A stretch of 64,000 bases of DNA, from positions 1 to 64,000 of IMG/VR virus record IMGVR_UViG_3300026549_000043. The stretch is one strand, 5' to 3'. A program made the position numbers and the translations under genes. Under the pieces are notes generated by a model. That model was not told the origin of the DNA. It did not search any database and saw only the letters and a list, made by a program, of their open reading frames with translations. Positions 2,608 to 50,015 of this stretch are shown here, one piece after another (within the stretch, counting starts at the first letter, position 1; every line of letters starts with the position of its first letter). The DNA comes from a virus. Taxonomy: Duplodnaviria; Caudoviricetes.

Positions 2608-4758
2608 ATGTCAAAATTATTATTAGAGAAAACTAGAAGAGAATTAATCAATCAATCAAAGGCTGCCGCCCCCGTAAAATCTTATGGTACTACTAGATAT
2701 GAAAGAAAAAATAAACAGCATATCTATAATAGTATTACTAATTTTAATAAGATTGATATGAATGCTTTATTCCAAGGTAATATGCTATCCTTTAAAGTGC
2801 CTGTTCATGGAGAAACAGATAATTATGAAGTTGAAGTACTTTTTGAGGGAATCTGTGATGGAATAAAACGTGAAGTAAAACGTAATAAAAATAAATTTGA
2901 ATATAAATGTGTTTATAGAGCATTAATCGATTCCATTAATAAACAAGATATTTATATTTCATGCTCATGCCCTGATTGATGTTTAGAAGGAAGCACCAAA
3001 ATAAAACTTTTAAATGGTGAAGTTTATACTGTAGAAGAATTAAAAGATAAATTTGATAAGGGCGAAGACCTTTGGGTATATTCAACCGATTCTAATGGTG
3101 ATTTTAAACCTGGACATGTTAATGATGTGTGGGTCAGTGGTTACACTACTGAGTTAGTAAAGGTTACATTAGACAATGGAGAAGAAATTTTAACAACTCC
3201 TAATCATAAATACATGCTTAGAGATGGATCGTATCTTGAAGCAGAAAAACTACAAAGTGGTCAATCTTTAATGCCTCTTTATTTTAGAGATACTAATGGG
3301 TATGAAAATGTAAAATTAAATTCTAAGAAACAGACTTCTTATTTTAGTGTTTACAAATTAGTTGCCAATGAACTATTAAAAGAAGAGATAGATAGTGCCA
3401 AGATAAGAAGTGGTGAAGAAGTTATTGCAATTCATCATATTGATTTTAATAAAAAGAATAATTATCCATCTAATTTAAAACCTATGGGTGTCCAAGAACA
3501 TTATAAATATCATTATGAACATGTTAAAGAATCTGGCGTATTGGATAAATGGATAAAGGCTGGTCAGGAACATAATAGGAAAGTGAAGGATCACTCAACT
3601 GAGGGGTATAAAATCCAAGCTAAGGTCATGTATGATGCCTTGTGGAGTGACAATGGCTACTATTCAAATAGAACACAAGAAGAAATAGATAGAGACTTTA
3701 CTGTTCACAGCAATGCAACAAAATCTGCCTGGGTAAGAGGCTGTTATAATACAGAGGCATTTAATAATGCATCAAAACAGAGGGGTGTTAATTTACATAC
3801 TCCTGAGGTTGAAGCCTTAGCTTTACAGGGTATCAGAAATCACTATAACAACTTATCTGACGAGGAAAGAACTAAAATTTCAAATAGAAATAAAGTAAAT
3901 AGTAAGACCGGCTGGCAAAATAACAGAGATAGTTATATGAAGAGTGAAAAATTTATGACCGCTAGGAAACATGGCTTTGATACTGTTCATACTGAAGAAA
4001 ATTTGTTAAAATCTAAAAAAAGTAGATTAGAAAAATATGGGAATGAAAACTATAATAACCCTCAAAAAATGAAAGTGTCTCGTTGTTTAAGAAATTTAAA
4101 AGAATTAATTGAAAAGAATATACCATTAACAGAAGAAAATTTCTATGCAAACAGAAGAAATGGAGACCCTCATTGAAGTAAAGTTTTTTCATCATTTAAT
4201 TCTATGTTAGAATACTTTGGTTTAAATGCTTATAATCATAAAGTAAAGAGTGTAGAATTTATTAAGTATGAAAACCCTATTCCTGTTTATGATTTATCAG
4301 TAGAAAAATGGAATAATTTTTATATCAATGCAGGAGTTATACTCCATAATTGCTATAGATTCTCTTACTGGGCTACTAAAGATAGATATAATGGTGGAAG
4401 ACCAGAGGTTAGAGTAGCAGATATTACTAACCCTAATAATAATCAGGGTGCTGGGTGTAAACATACCATTGCTGTTCTTTATAATTTGGATTGGGCTATG
4501 AAGCTAGCTACTAGTATTTCAAATTATGTTGAATATATGCAAGAAAATTATGAGGATAAATTTAAAAGATTAATTTTTCCAGCAATTTTTGATATTTCTT
4601 ATGATGAATATATTTCTGATGAGGTAGATGATGAATTGGCTAATTCAATGGATAATGAAGAAGACGTTGAAGAAATAGATAAATCTATAGAAAGAAGCCT
4701 ATATAAACCAGAGGAAGAAACCGAAGAAGAAACAGAAGAAGTCACGGAGGTTGAATAA
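2608..4758 (+). CDS. SWIM zinc-finger protein interrupted by an intein (TGA=Trp at 2977 and 4174)
   Basis: Three track ORFs share one frame and are separated only by TGA. The exteins join to CSCPDW|CYRFSYWAT...GCKH (CxC...CxH SWIM pattern). Confidence 0.85.
2980..4350 (+). mobile_element. Intein with HNH homing endonuclease (457 aa)
   Basis: Starts CLEGSTKIKLLNG; block B ILTTPNH; HNH IHHIDFNKKNNYPSNL; ends VYDLSVEKWNNFYINAGVILHN followed by Cys. Confidence 0.93.
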
Positions 4759-5483
4759 TGGAATTAAAAGAATATGTAGAACAAATAAAATTTCAATTAA
4801 CTGGAGGAATATTAGAAAGTGAATTAAAAGATTCTGATATAGAAAAAATTGTTATGTTTTCTTTAAAAGAATTAAATCGATATTATGATTCTACTGCTTT
4901 AGTTATGGCTGATGCTGCTAGTTGTATTGATTTAATTTCTTTACAAGAAAATAATAATATAAAGATAAGTTCAATTTCTAATGTTTATAGGTCTGAGGCT
5001 TCAGGGGTTTCATCTGGGGATGGAGCTACTACTTCAGATCCAATGTTTATCGCTCAGTGGAATTTTGCAAATAATTATTATGGTTATAATTCTAACAATT
5101 GAGCTTTGAACTATGCAGCATATAATACCATGCAGCAGATATCTTCTACTTTTTCTACTGATTTAGATTTTAAGGAAGATCAAGCTGGTGGTAAATTATA
5201 TATTAATTTTTCTAACGGGATGCCGTCTAAAGTTACCATTGAGTATGTTCCTAAGTTAGAATCAGTTGAAGAAGTTAAAGGTGAGTATTGAACCGATATA
5301 CTATTAAGACTGTCTTTAGCTCATACTAAAATAACTCTAGGCCGAATCAGAACAAGATATACTTTAAATGATGCTATTTGGGGCCAAGATGGTGAAACCC
5401 TTCTCACTGAGGGTAATACTGATTTAACCGCCTTGCGAGAAAGGCTTCAGACTCAGGCTAATTTCACCTATCCATGTGACTAG
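4758..5483 (+). CDS. Neck / head-tail adaptor, T4 gp13-like (TGA=Trp at 5100 and 5289)
   Basis: Continuous 241-aa frame. YWTDILLRLSLAHTKITLGRIRTRY...QDGETLLTEG matches the neck-1 pattern; position after the head genes. Confidence 0.7.
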
Positions 5484-19065: not shown

Positions 19066-22000
19066 ATGATTAATGATAACGATATCCAATTATCTAAAAT
19101 GTCATTTACAGATAAAGACTTTGCTTCCCTTTACCCAGATTTATTAGATTTGGCTAGACAGCTTACTAATGAATGGGATCCTAGTCAATCAACTAATGAA
19201 TCAGATCCAGGAGTAGTTTTATTAAAAGAGGGTGCATTTATTGCTGACCACAATAATTATAATATTGATAAAAATATTTTGGAAGCTTTTTTACCTTCTG
19301 CTACACAGGATAGATCAGTACGAAATATTACTGAAATGAATGGTTACACTCCAAGATACTATGTGTCTGCGGTTGGAGATGTAACAATTACTTATAAACC
19401 AGAAGATGAAACTAATGTTAATGGTTTCATCATCCCGGCCTTCACCTTAGTAGCTACGAATAAAAATGAAGACGTAGCTTATACTCAAATTAGTAACTTA
19501 ACTATAAATAGACCAGGAGTTCCTTCTTCATGTAGATTTATGGAGGGTACTCTTAATACTTTAAAAATCAATGGTACTGACCAGATCTTACTTGAAAATA
19601 TTGATGAAAATAATAGATTATATTTACCTAATATTTATATTCCACAGAATGGTATTTTTGTTAAAAACTATGGTAGTAACGACAGTGACCTATGGGTTAG
19701 AAATAATTATTTATTAACACAACCACTAGGTTCAAAGATTTATAAATTTGACTTTGATTCAAGTGTAAATTTACCATACATTGAATTTCCTACAGATATT
19801 GTAAATATCATCGAAAATGGTTTATCTATTAGATATATTTCTACTACAGGTGTAAATGGTAATATTAAGAGTAATGAATTAATAAAGATTCAAACTCCAA
19901 AAGAATATGTTACTACAGAAGGGTATAATATAAAAGTTAGTGAAGATTTTGAGATATCCAATCAATCTTCTATCTTTAATGGTAAAAACCCTGAAACTAT
20001 AAATGAAATGTATAGATCATTTAAAAAGGTAGTTGGTACTTTTGATACCTTAGTAACTACAAAGGACTATACTAATGCCATTTTTAATTTTGAGGATGAA
20101 TATAATAATCCAATCATTTCTAATGATGTAGTTACTGATATTAGAAATGATTATAACTATTCAGCTAATGTTATTACATTTGACCAGTATGGTGAATATT
20201 TTGAAAATGTAAGTCTTAATTCCTTAACTTACCATTTTGTATTAAATGAGAGCGAAGCTTCAAATGAAGGAGATATCTGGTTCAACGGTACTGGGTATTC
20301 AGTAATAAAGAATGGTGTAGAGACTCCATTAACTTCATTATCATATAAGGATTTTTCAACTGCCAGTGAGGCTATGACTCCTTATGATTTATGCATTCAT
20401 GCATTGAAAGCATTTAGCATGAGTGATTATTTGGCTTCAGATCCAAGCTATGCAATTAAGAAATCTTTTGAACCTGCTGATATTCCAACAATGAAGGAAA
20501 TAAAGACTTCTTTAGGTGAATTAAAATGTATTAATCATACTTTTAAAGATATTGAGTCTGACGATGTTTATTACTTTAAAAATTACGTACCTTTATATGT
20601 TACAGTAACCCCATATTCAAAGGTAACTGAAAAAGAGAAAAATGAAATTTTCCAAAATTTATATAAAGCCATTTCTTCAAATTTTAACGCTAGAATGGTA
20701 GAATTTGGTGAAGAATTAAATTATGATGAAGTCTTAGATGTATTAAATAATGCTGACGACCGTATTAAGAGTATTAGATTAGAAGATTTTGAATATAGAC
20801 CAGTAGCTGTAAAATATAATCCGAATGTAATTACTGGTGATGAAATTACTGAATATGATGTTTATAGTACTACCAATTCAGAAATTTTAGTTGATTTAGT
20901 AGCTAAAAACGTTTTAGCTGGAAGATTATGTTTATTTAATATCGATGAAAATTATGATTATAAATATGGTCAACAGGATTTACAAACATTCCCAGATATT
21001 ATTAATATTGAGACTCAGTCAGTAATTCCTTCTAGCAGTGGCAGTGGTGGTGCTACAACTGAAACTAAGACTACTGGTGTAGAATTCTCAGGCGAAGAAA
21101 CTTCTGAAGGAAAATGGGGAGTTGAACTAAGAATCCCTGAAGCTACTTCTAGTAATACTTTCACTGTATCTAATGGTAGTAGTAAAAAATTACCAGTGGG
21201 AATGACCTTACAGGTTACACCTGTTAGATACTTTAATAATGATTTAACTAACTATACTCCTATTGATAGTGAGCAATTATATTTTACTAATAACATAAAT
21301 AATGACTATGTAAGAATTTATAATAATAATGTTTCAGGTAATACTGGTAACTGAACCTTTAGTACTTCTAATCCAAGGGTAGTACCAAGTGGAGCTCTGT
21401 CTATTGATGTTTCTGAAGTAGTCAATCAAATTGATGGTGGAAGTATTAACCATGTTGTTCAACAGAATGAATATGTACAGATAGCTTACCCTAATTATTA
21501 CTCTACTAAAATATACCCAGTATACTGTTATTATAGATATTATTTAGGCGGAGCTCAAAGTGATACTGATTTAAATAATCATGTAGTAAAGGCCAACACT
21601 GACTATAGGTTAAAATCTGGTGAATATTTAATAATGTTATATACTAAGGATGATCAAATCCAAGTTGATAAATATGGCCCAGGTGATACAATCAGAACAT
21701 CATTTGATATGAAGTATACTGATTCTTCTACAGGAACTAAGGTAGAAAAAACTTATACAAATGAAGTTGGAGCCCAGATTTCAGGTCAGTTCCTGGCTTT
21801 ATCTGCTAGCCAGCAAATAGAAATAAGAGAATTATTAGAAACCACTTTAAATAATATTAGTACTCCTTGTTTCTGGATAACAAATAATCCTGGAAATATT
21901 TTATTTGAAGAGAACCAAAGATCAGTTATTTTAGATTCAGGTGAATATTTCATCTATAGTAACCTCTCATATGATTCAATGGTAATCTTAGGAGCTGGAA

Positions 22001-23346
22001 CTAAATTAACAAGATCTAGCAATGATAATACCCAGTGGGCTTTAGGTAATACTAATGTAACTATAACTTCAATAAATGAAGAAGGTTATTCAGCTGGAAT
22101 TACTTGGGTTAATAAAGATTTCTCTGGTGAGGGTAATGCCTTTAAAATTCAGGAAATGAATATTGTTACTTTAGGTCCTGATGATAAATTAATTATTTCA
22201 GGTGATGTAGATGATATTACTAATGAATGGCAAACTTTACCAAAGACTCCAGCCGGTGGTGATGATTTAGTTATAACTTATATTATTGGAGATTCATCTA
22301 CTACTTTAAAATATAATGGCACTTTCAATTATGAAATTAGAAGCAGACTTGATATTTCATTAAATGATTTACAGGCACAGACTCTAGGTAATAATCAATC
22401 AGTTACCATTGAATATTTAAATGCTTCGGGAGAAAAACAAACTACAACGATTCAAAATTCTTCAGGTAACAATGTTACTATTCAGTCATCAACCAACTTA
22501 GAATTAATCGGTGATAATTCTATCGATTTATCCTTATATTCAAATAATAATATTCCAGTTGGTTTAATGTCATATACTGAAACATCACCAACCATTACTA
22601 TTGGTTCTGAAACCCAGGAACTAGAAGATGTTAATGGAAGTTATAGAGTTAATATTTCAGGTGATGATGGTGAGCTAGATTTTCCTTTCGGATATAATGT
22701 TACTTTTAATGATCTAAGTGAAACATATAAGCAATATATTTTACCTGTATTCTTACTAAGAGATAAAGACCCTGAAGACCCACAGTCTACAGCTGGACAG
22801 ATAACTGTACAAATTTATAATGGAGATACTCCAATTAATTTTATTGATTATAATTCAACAAGCCCAGCTACTTCTATGGCTCTTACTGATACTAATATGT
22901 ATTTATTATCACCAGTACTAGTACCTAATAGTAATCCGGGTAATGTAGAACAAACTTCAGGCTCTCAAACAATTAATACTAATTTAACCTTAAAAATTAC
23001 TTGGAGTAGTAGACCAACTAATACTGAGGCAATAGTAATTTATAATCCAATGGTTATTGATGGAATAAATTCTAATTTATCTTTTGTAACTTTAAATTCT
23101 GTTTTAAATAGAATTAACGAGATTGTTTCTAACTCTAATAAACCAGATATAAAGCCTTATTATATACATAAGCCTGATAGTGATATGGCTATCCAGGATG
23201 AGGATATTACAAATCCTAATATTTTCTGGGATAAAAACAATGTTGCAAATATTATTACCATCCCTCAAATTGATTTAGAAAATTCTAACTTTGAAATCTT
23301 AAAATCAATGGATCTTACTTTAAGAAGAAATTCTAGAGAGGCTTAA
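19066..23346 (+). CDS. Baseplate wedge protein, gp6/J-like, 1426 aa (TGA=Trp at 21352)
   Basis: FTDKDF, ESDPGVVL, LVTTKDY; two track ORFs are in frame with only a TGA between them. Confidence 0.8.
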
Positions 23347-45496: not shown

Positions 45497-46506
45497 TGAG
45501 CATTTCTTTATCAATTAAATATAGGCCAACTGATTTTGATCAAGTTGTTTTCCAAGAGCCTGTGATTAAAATTTTAAATCAACAGATACAAACAAATTCC
45601 TTTGTAAATTGTTATATGTTTGTGGGACCATCTGGTTGTGGGAAGACTACTATGGCTAGAATTATGGCAAATAAAATAAATAAAGGACTAGGGAGTCCAA
45701 TTGAAATCGACGCTGCTAGTAATAATGGTGTTGATAATGTAAGATTGATTATAGAACAAGCCGATCAAAGATCTCTTGATTCTGAATATAAAATCTACAT
45801 TATCGATGAATGTCATATGCTTACTACTCAGGCCTGGAGTGCTTTATTAAAGTTAATTGAAGAGCCTCCAAAGTATACTATTTTTATGTTCTGTACTACT
45901 GAAATCCAAAAGGTACCTGAAACTATAAAAAATAGATGCCAGCAGTTTAAGCTAAAGAGAATACCTCTTAATCTGATAAAAGATAGACTAGAACATATTT
46001 GTAAAATAGAGAAAATAAATTATTCAGATGAAGGACTAGACCAGATATCTAAATTATCTCTGGGAAGTATGAGGCAAGCTATTTCTTATTTAGATAAGTG
46101 CAAGGATTATTCTGATAAAGTAGACCTTGAAAATACTTTGCAGGTCTTAGGTAATTTCAGTTACGATATTTATTTTAGATTAATAAATGCTATTATTGAT
46201 AAGAATAAGAATGAGATTATTACAGTAATTGAAACTTTATATAATAATGGTGATGATTTAAAATTATTTATAGATTTATTATTAGATTTTACATTAGATT
46301 TAACTAAGTTTATTATTTTTAAATCATATGATATTATTAAAATACCTCAAACGTATAAGAAAGAAATAGAATATACAATCAACGTAGAAAATCCAGGAAA
46401 ATATTATAATCATTTGATTGATAAAATTCTAGAATTAAAACAATTAATTAAAAATGATACCCTGGATAAAACTTCAATTGAAGTATTTCTATTATCAAGA
46501 ATTTAA
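45496..46506 (+). CDS. dnaX: Clamp loader gamma/tau subunit
   Basis: KYRP, GPSGCGKT, EIDAASNNGVD, IIDECHML, EEPP. Confidence 0.93.
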   Translation: MSISLSIKYRPTDFDQVVFQEPVIKILNQQIQTNSFVNCYMFVGPSGCGKTTMARIMANKINKGLGSPIEIDAASNNGVDNVRLIIEQADQRSLDSEYKIYIIDECHMLTTQAWSALLKLIEEPPKYTIFMFCTTEIQKVPETIKNRCQQFKLKRIPLNLIKDRLEHICKIEKINYSDEGLDQISKLSLGSMRQAISYLDKCKDYSDKVDLENTLQVLGNFSYDIYFRLINAIIDKNKNEIITVIETLYNNGDDLKLFIDLLLDFTLDLTKFIIFKSYDIIKIPQTYKKEIEYTINVENPGKYYNHLIDKILELKQLIKNDTLDKTSIEVFLLSRI

Positions 46507-46520
46507 AGGAGTTGATTTAA

Positions 46521-46802
46521 ATGGCTGAATTTCGTAATTGTGAAGAATATGTATTAAATTTATTAAATGAATCTCAGAATGAAGTAGCCCACCAGGAAGA
46601 AGTTATTAGAGAACTTAATCAGAGGCTTGGTGAAATAATGGAATCTTTCCAGAAATTAAAAGATTTAATAGTTAGAAATAGTTCTTATCACGAAGGAATA
46701 AATTTTAACAGTTATATTTCATTTAACTCTTTAATTGAAGGATGGGATCCAGATTTCGATGAAATAATTAGGCTGGTACCTAAAATTCCTCAACCAAAAT
46801 AA
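46521..46802 (+). CDS. Hypothetical protein
   Basis: SD AAGGAG. Confidence 0.5.
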   Translation: MAEFRNCEEYVLNLLNESQNEVAHQEEVIRELNQRLGEIMESFQKLKDLIVRNSSYHEGINFNSYISFNSLIEGWDPDFDEIIRLVPKIPQPK

Positions 46803-46858
46803 TAGGTATTTTCGTTAATCTCCAGTTGTTGCTAAATTTAAAATAAGGAGATTATACT

Positions 46859-47053
46859 ATGAAAATTAAAGATTTATTCGAGTTGGTAGATGGTCTACCT
46901 AATTACATAAACGTTATCACTGATAAAGAAGATCATTTATATATTGGAGCTTATTCTAAAGCCCCAGAAGAAATAAAAGAATTAAAATTTACAAAAGCTA
47001 TATTAAATTATGATTCATGGGTAATTGTGGATCAAATATTATTCTATATTTAG
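46859..47053 (+). CDS. Hypothetical protein
   Basis: Late-type promoter motif and SD upstream. Confidence 0.45.
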   Translation: MKIKDLFELVDGLPNYINVITDKEDHLYIGAYSKAPEEIKELKFTKAILNYDSWVIVDQILFYI

Positions 47054-47099
47054 TTTATATTTTACATTCCATAATGTATAATAATAATGTAATCAAAAA

Positions 47100-47360
47100 A
47101 AAGATGGGTCAAACTCTTCGGAGTCATTTATGAGGTAATCATATATCACATAACTGTAAGGTAATGCAGAAAACAAAGGTTTTAGAGGTGTGTCAAAATC
47201 TGGGGATAACAGTTTGTAATATGATTACATTTACAGGTACGAGTCTTCCTTGTCTAAACATTAGGCCGTGACCTTAAAGGAAATGCTACCCTGAGTTGCA
47301 ATATGGAAACTCTAAAGCTAGTGTGGCCACACGATCAGTTAGATCTCTGAATAAAAGATC
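47100..47360 (+). ncRNA. Structured non-coding leader RNA, unidentified
   Basis: cUUCGg hairpin 47113-47124; GTAATCATAT(47135)/ATATGATTAC(47219) rod; follows the promoter at 47051. Confidence 0.45.
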
Positions 47361-47365
47361 AACAT

Positions 47366-47463
47366 ACCTCGGTCTTACTGTCCGGTGACAGGAACGGTCT
47401 TCAAAATCGTAGGACACGGGTCCAACCGTGTTTATGAGGGCTCGACACCTTCCCGAGGTGCCA
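47366..47463 (+). tRNA. tRNA with UCA anticodon (UGA reader), tRNA-Sec-like scaffold, 7/5 fold
   Basis: ACCTCGG/CCGAGGT acceptor, G73-CCA; D arm CTGTC-CGGT-GACAG; anticodon loop CT-TCA-AA; 8-bp variable arm; T arm GAGGG/CCTTC. Confidence 0.85.
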
Positions 47464-47466
47464 TTT

Positions 47467-47541
47467 AGATCTTTGGTGTAATGGTAGCACAGCAGTCTCC
47501 AAAACTGTTAGGTGTGGGTTCAAGTCCTACAGGGTCTGCCA
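47467..47541 (+). tRNA. tRNA-Trp(CCA)
   Basis: Cloverleaf; anticodon CCA 47499-47501; GTTCAAGT T loop; GCCA end. Confidence 0.92.
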
Positions 47542-47544
47542 GTT

Positions 47545-48203
47545 TACTCTCACCATACACTGAACGTATGCGTAATAAAGGTTCTACACCGTTCCTAACG
47601 GGTAAATCCTAGCGAAAGCTAAAAACGGTGTTTTCTTTGACAATAAATCTGCAATATGGACTATGACAGGTACCACTTAAAAGTCATAGAGAGACTCACT
47701 GGACAGAAAACCAGTCTGACGACAGAACGTCAGAGACAAATACCACCAAAATAGGAATAGTAAATGGTTTGCAAGTATAGAGTCTAAGCAGATTTAGAAT
47801 AAACCGCAGGAAGTGTGTAGCGGTATAGTAAGTGTCAAACATCTTCTGGTAGGGTGCAGACTCATAACAAAGAATCAGCCACTATCGTCGAATCCTATAG
47901 CCCATGGCTCTAATGGACTATGCGTGAAAGCCTGAAAAGGATAAAAAGAGCCTGAAACGCTAGGTAAAAATGAAGGTATAGGCATCGAGCCAACATTCAA
48001 TTAGTTGCCAAGACCTTAAGAAATGTTAGAGGTCTGAAATCTCAAGATAAAACTGGTGGTGCAGCCTTGAGTAAGTAATGCGAAACGTGCCTTCTGGGGC
48101 TTGCATTGTGCAAGCGACCACCAATAGGGCGGGTGGTAAAACATAGGCCGACTTCCTTGCTTAGAACGCTGAACGTAGGCGTGGATGAAGAAAGACTAAG
48201 TAA
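47545..48203 (+). ncRNA. Large ornate structured RNA candidate A (~650 nt)
   Basis: Nested stems ACACCGTT/AACGGTGT, TTTGACA/TGTCAAA, TAAATCTGC/GCAGATTTA, CTATGAC/GTCATAG, CCTATA/TATAGG, GGCTCT/AGAGCC; GAAA tetraloops; GC-richer and non-coding. Confidence 0.65.
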
Positions 48204-48288
48204 CTTAACAGTGGTGGAATAGGTAGACACTGGGCAATGGTCGACTTGTCGAAGGAAATTATAAGGTGCAAATCCTTATCTGTTAAGA
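48204..48288 (+). ncRNA. tRNA-Leu-like element lacking a normal anticodon arm
   Basis: CTTAACAG/CTGTTAAG stem; Leu-type D arm GTGGAATAGGTAGACAC; T arm ATAAGG-TGCAAAT-CCTTAT. Confidence 0.6.
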
Positions 48289-48377
48289 TAGCTTACGAGT
48301 AACAAATAAACAAACTAGCCGTGGCGAGCTAGGTCGGTGAATATCGACTACAAGTGGTTCGACCCCACCGTAAGCTA
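48289..48377 (+). ncRNA. tRNA-like element with 8/4 (or 9/4) fold and no D stem
   Basis: (T)AGCTTACG/CGTAAGCT(A); T arm GTGG-TTCGACC-CCAC; CTAGC/GCTAG arm with an 8-nt loop; 6-bp variable arm. Confidence 0.6.
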
Positions 48378-48384
48378 TATCATA

Positions 48385-48875
48385 CGTCAGGAGATGTTGA
48401 TTTAAGTCCAACCACTCAGACTGGTTAGAGCCTGAACGAGTGTAGTTTAAGAAAAATCCTGACAAAGTGTTGGTAGACAAGCATTAAAAGTCACTAAGAC
48501 AATAGGAGCTGCGTACATGGTTAAATTGGTGGGTAAGACACCCATACCACAGCAGATGCGTGTGATTGAAACTGCACACCCAACACTATTTCGTTTGGCA
48601 GTGTTCGAGAATAACTGCACACAAAGGGTTCACGATGGTACCTTACTTCACAACCTAGAGCAGTAAAGAAATGCCACAATAGGGCAAAGTAAAGAGACTA
48701 AAGGTAAATCGTTGTAAAAATGGTGATGAAATTGTTGCTCGTCTACGCGCGTAGAAAGAGTATCAGGAGCGTTTAGGCGTTCCTTGCAGTAGCAAATGGC
48801 CTCACGTACAGTACAGTTGGTCAACAGGTAGTAATGGTGCTGCCTGACCAGTGTTGGTTAGCAAAGCTGTACTTT
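48385..48875 (+). ncRNA. Large structured RNA candidate B (~490 nt)
   Basis: Stems GTCAGGA/TCCTGAC, AGTGTTGG/CCAACACT, AGGAGCG/CGTTCCT, AGTACAG/CTGTACT, CAGGTAGTA/TGCTGCCTG. Confidence 0.6.
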
Positions 48876-48880
48876 AACAT

Positions 48881-48951
48881 TTCTCCGTCGTCTAATGGCA
48901 GGACATCTCACTTTGACTGAGACAATAGTTGTTCAACTCAACTCGGAGAAG
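48881..48951 (+). tRNA. tRNA-Gln(UUG)
   Basis: TTCTCCG/CGGAGAA; TCTCA-CTTTGAC-TGAGA; no encoded CCA. Confidence 0.85.
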
Positions 48952-48952
48952 C

Positions 48953-49026
48953 GCCGGATTAGTATAAAAGTATTACACCTGTCTTGTAAACAGGATAAAG
49001 CGGGGCAGTACCGTTATCCGGCCCCA
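48953..49026 (+). tRNA. tRNA-Thr(UGU)
   Basis: GCCGGAT/ATCCGGC, CCA; CCTGT-CTTGTAA-ACAGG; atypical T loop GGCAGTA. Confidence 0.8.
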
Positions 49027-49045
49027 CTAGAAAAGGAGATTCACT

Positions 49046-49255
49046 ATTAAAGACAAGATTAGAGTATCTGGCACAATCATAGATGTCTTGCCAGGAGATA
49101 AGTTCAAGATTCTTTTATCTAATGAGAGTGAAGTCATTGGGTATTTGTCTGGTAAGATAAGAAAGAATAGGATTAAAATTGTTGAAGGAGATTCTGTAGA
49201 CATAGAATTGTCTATTTATGACTTGTCTAAAGGTAGAATAGTATATAGGAATTAA
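49046..49255 (+). CDS. infA: Translation initiation factor IF-1 (ATT start; absent from the ORF track)
   Basis: KDKIRVSGTIIDVLPGDKFKILL...LSGKIRKNRIKIVEGDSVDIELSIYDLSKGRIVYR; SD AAGGAG 7 nt before ATT. Confidence 0.92.
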   Translation: MKDKIRVSGTIIDVLPGDKFKILLSNESEVIGYLSGKIRKNRIKIVEGDSVDIELSIYDLSKGRIVYRN

Positions 49256-49257
49256 AT

Positions 49258-49500
49258 ATGGAAAAATTAGGGATAGATTTAATTAATAAGGTTACGGAGT
49301 TTATAGATGATTCAGATGATGACGAAGCCGTTGAATTAGTTTCTACTTTATATATGATGTTGGTAGAAGTATCTAGTTCAGCTACGATTCTTACTGTTGA
49401 AAATAGACTTTTAAACCGAGAACTCGAAGATTATTATGATGAAGAAGAAATTAATGAATTAAATGAAAAGATTAAATCCGATAGTAACTTAGTTTCATAA
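49258..49500 (+). CDS. Hypothetical acidic protein
   Basis: ORF in operon. Confidence 0.45.
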   Translation: MEKLGIDLINKVTEFIDDSDDDEAVELVSTLYMMLVEVSSSATILTVENRLLNRELEDYYDEEEINELNEKIKSDSNLVS

Positions 49501-49781
49501 TGGAAAATGATATTAAAGAATTTATTTTAAGAAGGTTCAACAACGATAGTAATTGGTTAAACGGTAATTGCTTATGGTTTTCATTAATTTTAAGTCTTCG
49601 TTTTCCAGGTGGGAATATATATTACCTCCCAGTAGATGGTCACTTTGTTTATGAATATAATTCAAAATACTATGATTGGTCAGGTGAAATATCTTGCCCA
49701 GAAAACAAATTAAAACTTAATGATCTGAAAGAATTAGATCCAACTTGATATAACAGATTAATCCGAGACTGTTTTTTATAA
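49500..49781 (+). CDS. Hypothetical protein with GNC...H...YD motif (TGA=Trp at 49746)
   Basis: NGNCLWF, GHFV, YYDWSG. Confidence 0.55.
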
Positions 49782-49826
49782 ATAGGGTAATAGTTTACTC
49801 TATTTTTATTTTAAGGTATAATATTT

Positions 49827-50015
49827 ATGATGGATGGATCAATAGTTAAATTTAAAGGAAAATATGGAATTATAAGAATTAAATCTAAGATTATTAATCA
49901 ATATGGTTATAAAAGTTTAAATAATGTTTATTTAGAAGATGGTAGTACTAGAATGTGTAGAGATGATGAATTAGAGGTATTAAATAATGATAGGACAAAA
50001 GAAGTTGAAGAATAA
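49827..50015 (+). CDS. Small hypothetical protein
   Basis: Lies behind the promoter at 49791. Confidence 0.4.
   Translation: MMDGSIVKFKGKYGIIRIKSKIINQYGYKSLNNVYLEDGSTRMCRDDELEVLNNDRTKEVEE

Follow-up and report, generated by a model that had tools for sequence, protein, structure and literature searches.

A phage tRNA(UCA) with a second, anticodon-like hairpin: member of a family of candidate tryptophan-inserting opal decoders

Gut phages which reassigned TGA to tryptophan (Trp), among them Agate and Jade, carry their own transfer RNAs (tRNAs) with a UCA anticodon (Borges et al., bioRxiv 10.1101/2021.08.26.457843; Seki et al., PMC12636597). In phages of the Agate/Jade type, which are AT-rich and stem from animal guts, TGA stands for Trp mainly in structural and lysis genes, while the replication genes follow the standard code. 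Reliance on the tryptophanyl-tRNA synthetase (TrpRS) of the host was also proposed for the recoded gut phages (Borges et al./Seki et al., 10.1101/2021.08.26.457843; PMC12636597), and 13 of 13 assayed phage tRNA(UCA) inserted Trp in an E. coli extract (Seki et al., PMC12636597). Borges et al. (bioRxiv 10.1101/2021.08.26.457843) detected a suppressor tRNA in only 35% of the TGA-recoded phages and suspected further, non-canonical ones. Here, we analyzed a tRNA(UCA) gene at positions 47366 to 47463 of a 64,000-nucleotide stretch, termed the window throughout the paper, which represents the first 64 kb of one 139,874-bp viral contig (IMG/VR record IMGVR_UViG_3300026549_000043). The window phage shares the traits of the Agate/Jade type listed above, from the phage-borne UCA tRNA to the uneven use of TGA. 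In addition, its tRNA(UCA) carries a long extra arm with a second anticodon-like hairpin, which displays CCA in its loop. As ARAGORN misses this tRNA, it may belong to the “missing” suppressors of the other 65% of the genetic code 4 phages. In text searches, the two phage studies describe neither a long extra arm nor a second anticodon-like hairpin, with the 31 tRNA(UCA) tested in PMC12636597 compared by text only. Full-text searches, which covered few subscription journals, brought up no tRNA(UCA) described as having an extra arm with a CCA loop, and the family of suppressor tRNAs with a UCCAA hairpin reported below is apparently unpublished.

Three further groups of tRNAs invite comparison. 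Bacterial selenocysteine tRNA (tRNA-Sec; selC; RF01852) likewise has G73 and the anticodon UCA in a CUUCAAA loop, and both its extra arm and its D stem are long, the latter with a 4-nt CGGU loop. However, the acceptor/T branch of the window tRNA is 7/5 and not 8/5, its first pair is A1-U72, its score on the tRNA-Sec model stays below the gathering threshold, SelA, SelB and SelD are missing from the contig, its client UGAs are Trp positions without a sign of site-specific recoding, and its relatives are Trp-bodied. The tRNA-Trp(UCA) of Mycoplasmatales and other code 4 bacteria (PMC13092985) is a Trp tRNA with a C34U change which reads UGA and is charged by TrpRS, as the window tRNA presumably is. 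The bacterial version is an ordinary class I tRNA with a co-evolved TrpRS in organisms lacking RF2, whereas the window tRNA has the extra CCA hairpin and would face a foreign, standard-code TrpRS. The allo-tRNAs and the selC* tRNA-Cys(UCA), discovered during searches for tRNA-Sec and in part derived from phages and rumen bacteria, are also irregular and Sec-like with long extra arms, some of them with UCA and A1-U72 (Mukai et al., PMC5389517). Their branches are 8/4 or 9/3 and their identities Ser, Ala or Cys, whereas the window tRNA shows a 7/5 branch, a Trp codon context and a conserved sequence in the extra-arm loop. A functional parallel is provided by the E. coli thrS operator, an anticodon-arm mimic recognised by ThrRS. 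There, too, a hairpin copies the cognate anticodon loop, and the mimic is read by the anticodon-binding domain of the synthetase, as we suppose for the window tRNA. The thrS mimic resides in an mRNA and is regulatory, whereas the mimic in the window lies inside a tRNA and is proposed to serve the aminoacylation of that tRNA itself.

The 98-nt tRNA gene is real. An earlier note, made from the sequence of the window, had described a 98-nt tRNA with the loop CUUCAAA, a CGGU D loop and an 8-bp variable arm, and exactly this cloverleaf was obtained as the minimum-energy fold by RNAfold. All elements are on the plus strand. The 7-bp acceptor stem pairs 47366-47372 with 47453-47459, its first pair being A47366-U47459 (A1-U72) and its second C2-G71. 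The D arm (47378..47391) has a 5-bp stem and the 4-nt loop CGGU, a Sec-like sub-variant according to RNAfold and the Rfam tRNA-Sec alignment; a potential sixth layer of the stem is an A.G mismatch. A 5-bp anticodon stem carries the loop CUUCAAA (47399..47405) with the anticodon UCA (47401-47403), which reads UGA. The hairpin at the position of the variable arm (47412..47433) consists of an 8-bp stem including two G.U pairs and the 6-nt loop GUCCAA (47420-47425), within which the CCA triplet occupies 47422-47424. A 5-bp T stem with the loop CUCGACA, G73 (47460) and an encoded CCA end (47461-47463) complete the tRNA. The 7+5 branch, A1-U72 and G73 of the note were all found in sequence and fold. 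The branch is 7/5 (12 bp) and not 8/5, because the would-be eighth acceptor pair is U.C, and an 8/4 reading of the allo-tRNA type would likewise need a U.C pair. An ordinary tRNA-Trp(CCA), also mentioned in the note, follows after a gap of 3 nt (47467..47541, plus strand) and was found by both ARAGORN and the Rfam tRNA model (60.1 bits); the two tRNAs are probably co-transcribed. Upstream of it, the tRNA(UCA) gene is overlooked by ARAGORN and stays below the threshold of the general Rfam tRNA model, while the Rfam tRNA-Sec model aligns it in register with 39.3 bits versus a gathering score of 47. By itself, the fold energy is ordinary (z = -1.6). An orthologue in a related recoded phage (L023:1501-1596) shows the same architecture with nearly every stem pair altered on both sides. 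The structure of the tRNA(UCA) rests on this covariation and on that within the family described below.

The window phage reads TGA as Trp. Open reading frames (ORFs) of at least 90 codons ending in TGA stay open in frame for a median of 33 further codons, compared to 4 for those ending in TAA or TAG, and these extensions typically stop right where the next gene starts. If TAA and TAG alone are counted as stops, 92.7% of the contig is taken up by long ORFs. In the portal gene (Pfam Portal_T4, E = 2e-46, residues 65-522) codon 288 is TGA. The same column, part of a conserved motif, holds TGG in 8 and TGA in 4 of 12 related IMG/VR contigs. Further sites at 5100, 5289, 125281, 128578, 130254 and 137883 likewise correspond to TGG or TGA codons of relatives. 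Two of these are plus-strand codons of the head-tail adaptor gene (4758-5483; PHROG match), namely 5100..5102 (relatives: TGG 2, TGA 3, with R or Y in two distant ones) and 5289..5291 (relatives: TGG 2, TGA 4). The interchange of TGA and TGG at codon 288 and these six columns bears out the claim of the note that the TGA sites are Trp positions. An additional in-frame TGA (21352..21354, plus strand) fuses 19066-21354 and 21634-23346 into one late gene of 1426 codons. It is followed by 93 open codons without an ATG, GTG or TTG start. Separately, TGAs at 2977 and 4174 join three same-frame ORFs between 2608 and 4758 into a frame of 716 codons, possibly one protein, the middle part of which matches HNH endonucleases.

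The use of TGA differs strongly between gene classes. Overall, TGA accounts for at most about 16% of the Trp codons of the contig (81 TGA versus 415 TGG, an upper bound). None of the 33 Trp codons in six replication and nucleotide genes (DNA polymerase, helicase, SbcC, NrdD and two topoisomerase genes) is TGA, compared to 14 of 59 (45 TGG) in nine structural and lysis genes including portal, terminase, adaptor, tail fibre and CHAP lysin (Fisher p = 0.0016). The tRNA(UCA) gene itself is located in standard-code territory, between the TGA-free replication block and SbcC/NrdD. Using the family model R1 introduced below, no second UCA tRNA was found in the 140-kb contig.

In order to judge the extra hairpin, related tRNAs were collected with three sequence patterns. 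The first one described the anticodon loop and the T arm, left the middle unconstrained and yielded 14 IMG/VR loci with 7 distinct sequences (8 including that of the window). UCCAA was present within the extra-hairpin loop in 8 of these 8. The second pattern demanded UCCAA and gave 108 stretches, from which 65 distinct sequences passed a cloverleaf filter. The third was again free of UCCAA. Among the matches listed for it, 13 were cloverleaf-like UCA tRNAs with a long arm; 11 of the 13 contained UCCAA and the other two resemble 8/5 tRNA-Sec. Together, a covarying extra hairpin with a UCCAA loop is common to 65 or more distinct tRNA(UCA) genes of phages. The earlier note had overlooked how closely the conserved variable-arm loop resembles the anticodon loop of tRNA-Trp.

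Throughout the family the anticodon loop CUUCAAA is invariant, though the search patterns demanded it. All 65 members have G73, and 54 of them have A1-U72. An extra-hairpin stem of at least 4 bp (4-8 bp) occurs in 64 of 65 members versus 12% in a shuffled null, with 51 distinct stem sequences. The loop has the 7-nt form N-UCCAA-N in 45 of 65, and the base following UCCAA, which was not constrained by any pattern, is A in 56 of 65. Pairing is fulfilled in 95% of the cells of the 65-member alignment, compared to 64% in shuffles and 37-48% in slid controls; the covariation score is 0.773 versus 0.196, and in the extra helix both partners vary in all 5 modelled pairs. We are aware that these covariation values come from a model-guided alignment (A4), which is biased towards the structure of the model; the MAFFT alignment A1 misplaced the 5' ends of the group with long D stems, and a 150-row alignment (A2) was left out due to contamination by other tRNAs. 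The window tRNA agrees with the family in the UCCAA hairpin loop, the 7/5 branch, CUUCAAA, G73 and the in-frame TGAs at Trp positions. It scores 60.5 bits on R1, a value that is not independent, as the tRNA is part of the seed alignment. The orthologue in the related phage G001 was reached only via the Rfam tRNA-Sec model and then R1, a DNA search of five records having given one weak T-arm match. The related records G002-G005 are fragments of 13-60% completeness without a UCA tRNA match and uninformative on absence.

In most family members the body is that of a plain tRNA-Trp, its D arm reading GUGU/AAUGGUA/GCAC and its acceptor beginning with AGGGG. At one locus (L076) the UCA tRNA is essentially the adjacent tRNA-Trp(CCA) plus the C34U change and an inserted hairpin. 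The D arms grade continuously from the canonical form (4-bp stem, 7-nt loop) into forms with 5-6-bp stems and 3-4-nt loops, and the window tRNA lies at the Sec-like end. Tandems of the UCA tRNA and a tRNA-Trp(CCA) with gaps of 3-11 nt were observed for 4 of the 65 distinct tRNAs (L066, L074, L076, L130). In a closely related phage (L094:11829-11927, minus strand) a Trp-bodied UCA tRNA occupies the exact site which in the window holds the Sec-like UCA tRNA and the tRNA-Trp(CCA) (47366-47541), and the non-coding flanks on both sides are 83-97% identical to those of the window. From these orthologous loci it follows that Sec-like and Trp-bodied designs replace each other. The co-occurrence with TGA recoding in other phages, suggested in the note as a check, was also observed: when TGA was read as sense, 30 of 53 family loci gained at least 0.10 in long-ORF cover, a rise exceeding that of the TAG control. 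No match to PF00579 (TrpRS/TyrRS) was obtained in the contig of the window, nor in 50 phage records carrying a family member, among them 14 with a completeness of at least 90%.

The UCCAA-demanding pattern was also employed for bacterial genomes, where it matched mostly by chance. Among the matches listed, at least 11 distinct sequences passed the cloverleaf filter, with 3 family members and 8 ordinary 8/5 tRNA-Sec. The latter come from Caulobacterales, other Proteobacteria and Acidobacteria (L255, L268, L275, L301, L315, L246, L283, L346) and carry UCCAA in the loop of the extra arm, which may reflect chance plus descent, the pattern having selected for UCCAA. One long-D-stem family tRNA lies on a 1.48-Mb scaffold of the cultured isolate Bacteroides neonati MS4 (L302; NZ_HG726020.1) and is identical to that of the locus L123. 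Its gene neighbourhood matches an IMG/VR contig, and the locus is likely a prophage and a possible experimental system. Other members lie on contigs assigned to genome bins of Parabacteroides, Gemmiger and Phoenicibacter.

UGA decoding by the tRNA(UCA) is well supported. We consider it likely, with considerable reservation, that the tRNA is charged with Trp, acts as an EF-Tu-type opal decoder and uses the extra arm as a surrogate CCA anticodon for the TrpRS of the host. The tRNA(UCA) would be transcribed together with the tRNA-Trp(CCA) from the early/middle, TGA-free part of the genome. The TrpRS of the host would then attach Trp via G73, A1-U72 and the CCA loop of the extra hairpin, which would replace the anticodon changed to UCA. 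EF-Tu would deliver the charged tRNA, in agreement with the 12-bp (7/5) acceptor/T branch, and UCA would pair with UGA in competition with RF2. Charging by TrpRS is suggested by the Trp positions of the client codons, and since neither the contig nor the 50 family-bearing records contain a gene of the TrpRS/TyrRS family, the charging enzyme would have to come from the host. In terms of the bacterial Trp identity set (PMC9976931), G73 and A1-U72 are present, while the anticodon is UCA instead of C34-C35-A36 and CCA is found in the extra hairpin. This hairpin begins at the junction with the anticodon stem and has a length similar to it. Both TrpRS and TyrRS contact the tRNA from the side of the variable loop, which makes the geometry of such a handle conceivable. 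Under this reading, structural and lysis genes with in-frame TGAs would become translatable in a host that reads UGA as stop.

We are aware of several points that weigh against the proposed handle or against Trp charging. The evidence for the handle consists of resemblance and conservation, and as the largest scan demanded UCCAA, the conservation argument rests on the smaller unbiased sets. UCCAA alone does not mark the phage family, because some 8/5 tRNA-Sec carry it. The window tRNA itself has the 6-nt variant GUCCAA on an 8-bp stem instead of the usual 7-nt loop, and its acceptor pairs 2-4 differ from the G-C pairs preferred by the B. subtilis TrpRS. The handle may be unnecessary, because the E. 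coli TrpRS charges tRNA-Trp-derived UCA suppressors without such an arm. A long extra arm and G73 are also what SerRS recognises. Finally, the host is presumed to use the standard code.

The strongest competing explanation keeps the Trp-inserting opal decoder and denies the hairpin any role in aminoacylation. TrpRS would use G73, A1-U72 and C35-A36 alone, and the hairpin would be the relic of a duplication or insertion of an anticodon arm, or would aid folding, processing, modification (e.g., by enzymes of the A36-A37-A38 loop) or the performance at the ribosome versus RF2. The tRNA of L076, a tRNA-Trp(CCA) with a hairpin inserted, is consistent with such an origin, and in E. coli, plain UCA suppressors of tRNA-Trp origin receive Trp (10.1101/2021.08.26.457843; 13/13 in PMC12636597). 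However, a relic would not hold UCCAA invariant amid a stem turnover with 51 distinct stems and double changes at all modelled pairs. It would also not persist across differing D-arm and acceptor backgrounds, nor at the L094 locus with its otherwise exchanged tRNA. We regard this explanation as rather unlikely, but deserving serious attention.

The earlier note had proposed a tRNA-Sec scaffold remodelled to 7/5, charged either with Trp or with Ser. In the second version SerRS would recognise the long arm together with G73, and UGA would be read as Ser or ambiguously. The likeness to bacterial tRNA-Sec listed above speaks for this, as do the Rfam scores, the tRNA-Sec model aligning the window tRNA in register and above the general tRNA model, and ARAGORN calls several family members tRNA-SeC. 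However, the 39.3 bits remain below the threshold of 47 and below the 42.8 bits that an ordinary tRNA-Gly of a related phage obtains on the same model, so the score is unspecific. With respect to the 6-bp D stem and 4-nt loop of tRNA-Sec, the window tRNA has five standard pairs plus the A.G layer and the loop CGGU, a combination that is also found in the continuum of the Trp-type family. Descent from a tRNA-Sec scaffold, or use of one, finds no support in view of the sub-threshold score, the Trp-bodied relatives, this D-arm continuum and the Trp-bodied version at the same locus in L094. Profile searches for SelA, SelB (SelB-wing) and SelD (AIRS_C) gave no match in the whole 139,874-bp contig, which extends the statement of the note for the window. 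A dependence on SelA/SelB with targets marked by selenocysteine insertion sequence (SECIS) elements, named in the note as a contrary outcome, is at odds with this and with the position of the UGAs at Trp columns of portal, adaptor, terminase and tail genes. A working selenocysteine tRNA was rejected due to the 7/5 branch, the score, the Sel genes missing from the contig and the client UGAs at Trp positions.

Regarding Ser, the window tRNA shows the long extra arm and G73 of tRNA-Ser, while G2-C71 and a Ser codon context are absent. The C2-G71 pair found instead is an anti-determinant for the E. coli SerRS (PMC9976931). TGA swaps with TGG at conserved Trp columns, where Ser would be damaging, and the family is mostly Trp-bodied. 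Charging with Ser is unlikely, and the Sec-derived, Ser-charged tRNA as a whole appears highly improbable to us. From the proposal of the note, the 7/5 UGA decoder with the acceptor marks of Trp remained, and Trp charging is the better supported of its two options.

A host of genetic code 4 might read UGA as Trp on its own, with the phage tRNA merely adding supply and without any recoding switch. The genome is AT-rich (31% GC) like those of code 4 organisms. On the other hand, standard-code hosts are predicted for such phages by Borges et al. (10.1101/2021.08.26.457843). A TGA share of only about 16% of the Trp codons with none in replication genes fits a late recoding confined to the phage and not a code 4 host. 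Furthermore, one family member resides in the Bacteroides neonati isolate scaffold, and Bacteroides uses the standard code. We give this explanation very little weight. Least probable of all is a non-decoding decoy which titrates a host factor for the anticodon loop of tRNA-Trp (anticodon nuclease, T-box leader or TrpRS), since, although the extra loop mimics that loop and phage tRNA clusters counter host tRNA-targeting defences, all features of a translating tRNA are retained (7/5, U33, 7-nt anticodon loop, T loop, CCA) and the tRNA is the sole UGA reader found in a genome needing one and co-occurs with TGA recoding in other phages.

Returning to the charging of the tRNA(UCA) via its CCA hairpin, two anticodon-type hairpins might uncouple the reading by the synthetase from the reading by the ribosome, the true one being altered for a stop codon and the second one, at the variable-arm position, retaining the cognate anticodon as a handle for the synthetase of the host. 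Whether this represents a general, modular route to code changes, used for Trp in many phage lineages and with several types of tRNA body, and possibly for Gln, we regard as an attractive, but still tentative, extension. With respect to Gln, three IMG/VR loci (L408, L419, L437) encode a tRNA(CUA) with a Trp-like D arm, an A1.C72 mismatch and G73. Their hairpin at the variable position has 3 bp and the 7-nt loop Y-U-CUG-A-R, a look-alike of the Gln anticodon loop, and from their sequences they are a possible amber/Gln counterpart of the Trp arm. The pattern used here demanded the motif and matched mostly ordinary tRNA-Gln, because their D loops contain UCUAA; the 3 candidates were left after filtering.

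The genes of the contig are almost all located on the plus strand, and CheckV estimated a completeness of 83%. Profile matches comprise a structural and lysis set (T4-type portal, tail sheath, terminase, collagen-like tail fibres, CHAP lysin) and a replication set (DNA polymerase, helicase, SbcC, NrdD, topoisomerase II). DNA near-identical to the window phage was found in bovine-gut metagenomes from several studies. A blastn search of 46000-50000 against GenBank phages yielded tRNA-Trp-sized matches only and no relative of the phage. In bovine-gut RNA, two libraries from one sample cover 99% of the sampled words of the region. One RNA-library contig spans 46100-48509, and with it the tRNA/non-coding block, at a word depth of 155. 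The flanking RNA contigs of the same phage have mostly depths of 4-14 (10-30x lower), and the contig immediately downstream has 43 (~4x lower). These contigs, which give no ends, strand or level of the tRNA, provide a weak hint that the tRNA block is expressed.

The tRNAs lie in a non-coding block of about 2 kb (47100-49100) with a GC content of 0.37-0.51 versus a background of 0.30; neither code 11 nor code 4 gives an ORF of 100 codons there. It holds four tRNAs, as a tRNA-Gln(UUG) and a tRNA-Thr(UGU) follow 1.3 kb downstream of the tRNA pair. The tRNA-Thr(UGU) (48953-49023) abuts the tRNA-Gln(UUG) and obtains 43.6 bits on the Rfam model, and ARAGORN misses it. The 1.3 kb in between (47541-48881) gave no genuine Rfam match (E <= 10) and neither GOLLD nor ROOL. 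Several of its blocks are collinear in L094 with 82-97% identity, separated by stretches that cannot be aligned, and resemble a large structured RNA. Within it, a tRNA-like element (48288-48378) consists of a 10-bp terminal stem, a 17-nt A-rich strand and two hairpins. A T-arm look-alike (GUGG / UUCGACC / CCAC) stacks on the terminal stem, and the element lacks CCA and a 7-nt anticodon loop. Its fold is stable (z = -3.99; 0 of 200 shuffles equally stable) and its sequence 96% identical in L094. In the related phage G001, a seven-tRNA cluster contains a tRNA-Gly(UCC) with C33 instead of U33 (L019:1544-1618).

The window tRNA is one more member of the UCCAA-hairpin suppressor family, with an unusual D arm. 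For annotation, this means that tRNA(UCA) genes with a UCCAA hairpin should not be called selenocysteine tRNAs, and that their presence flags the need for code 4 gene calling. The family bears on the means by which a phage gets a standard-code cell to translate a stop codon into an amino acid, and on the acceptance of a tRNA with an altered anticodon by anticodon-reading synthetases of the host. Both the question of the unseen suppressors and that of their acceptance by the synthetase would be answered by a suppressor tRNA that carries a second, cognate anticodon hairpin, as standard finders overlook it or wrongly label it “tRNA-SeC” and it would still show the enzyme its expected triplet. If the handle is real, it would represent a new kind of tRNA identity element, and a design principle for engineered suppressor tRNAs which are to be kept good substrates of anticodon-reading synthetases.

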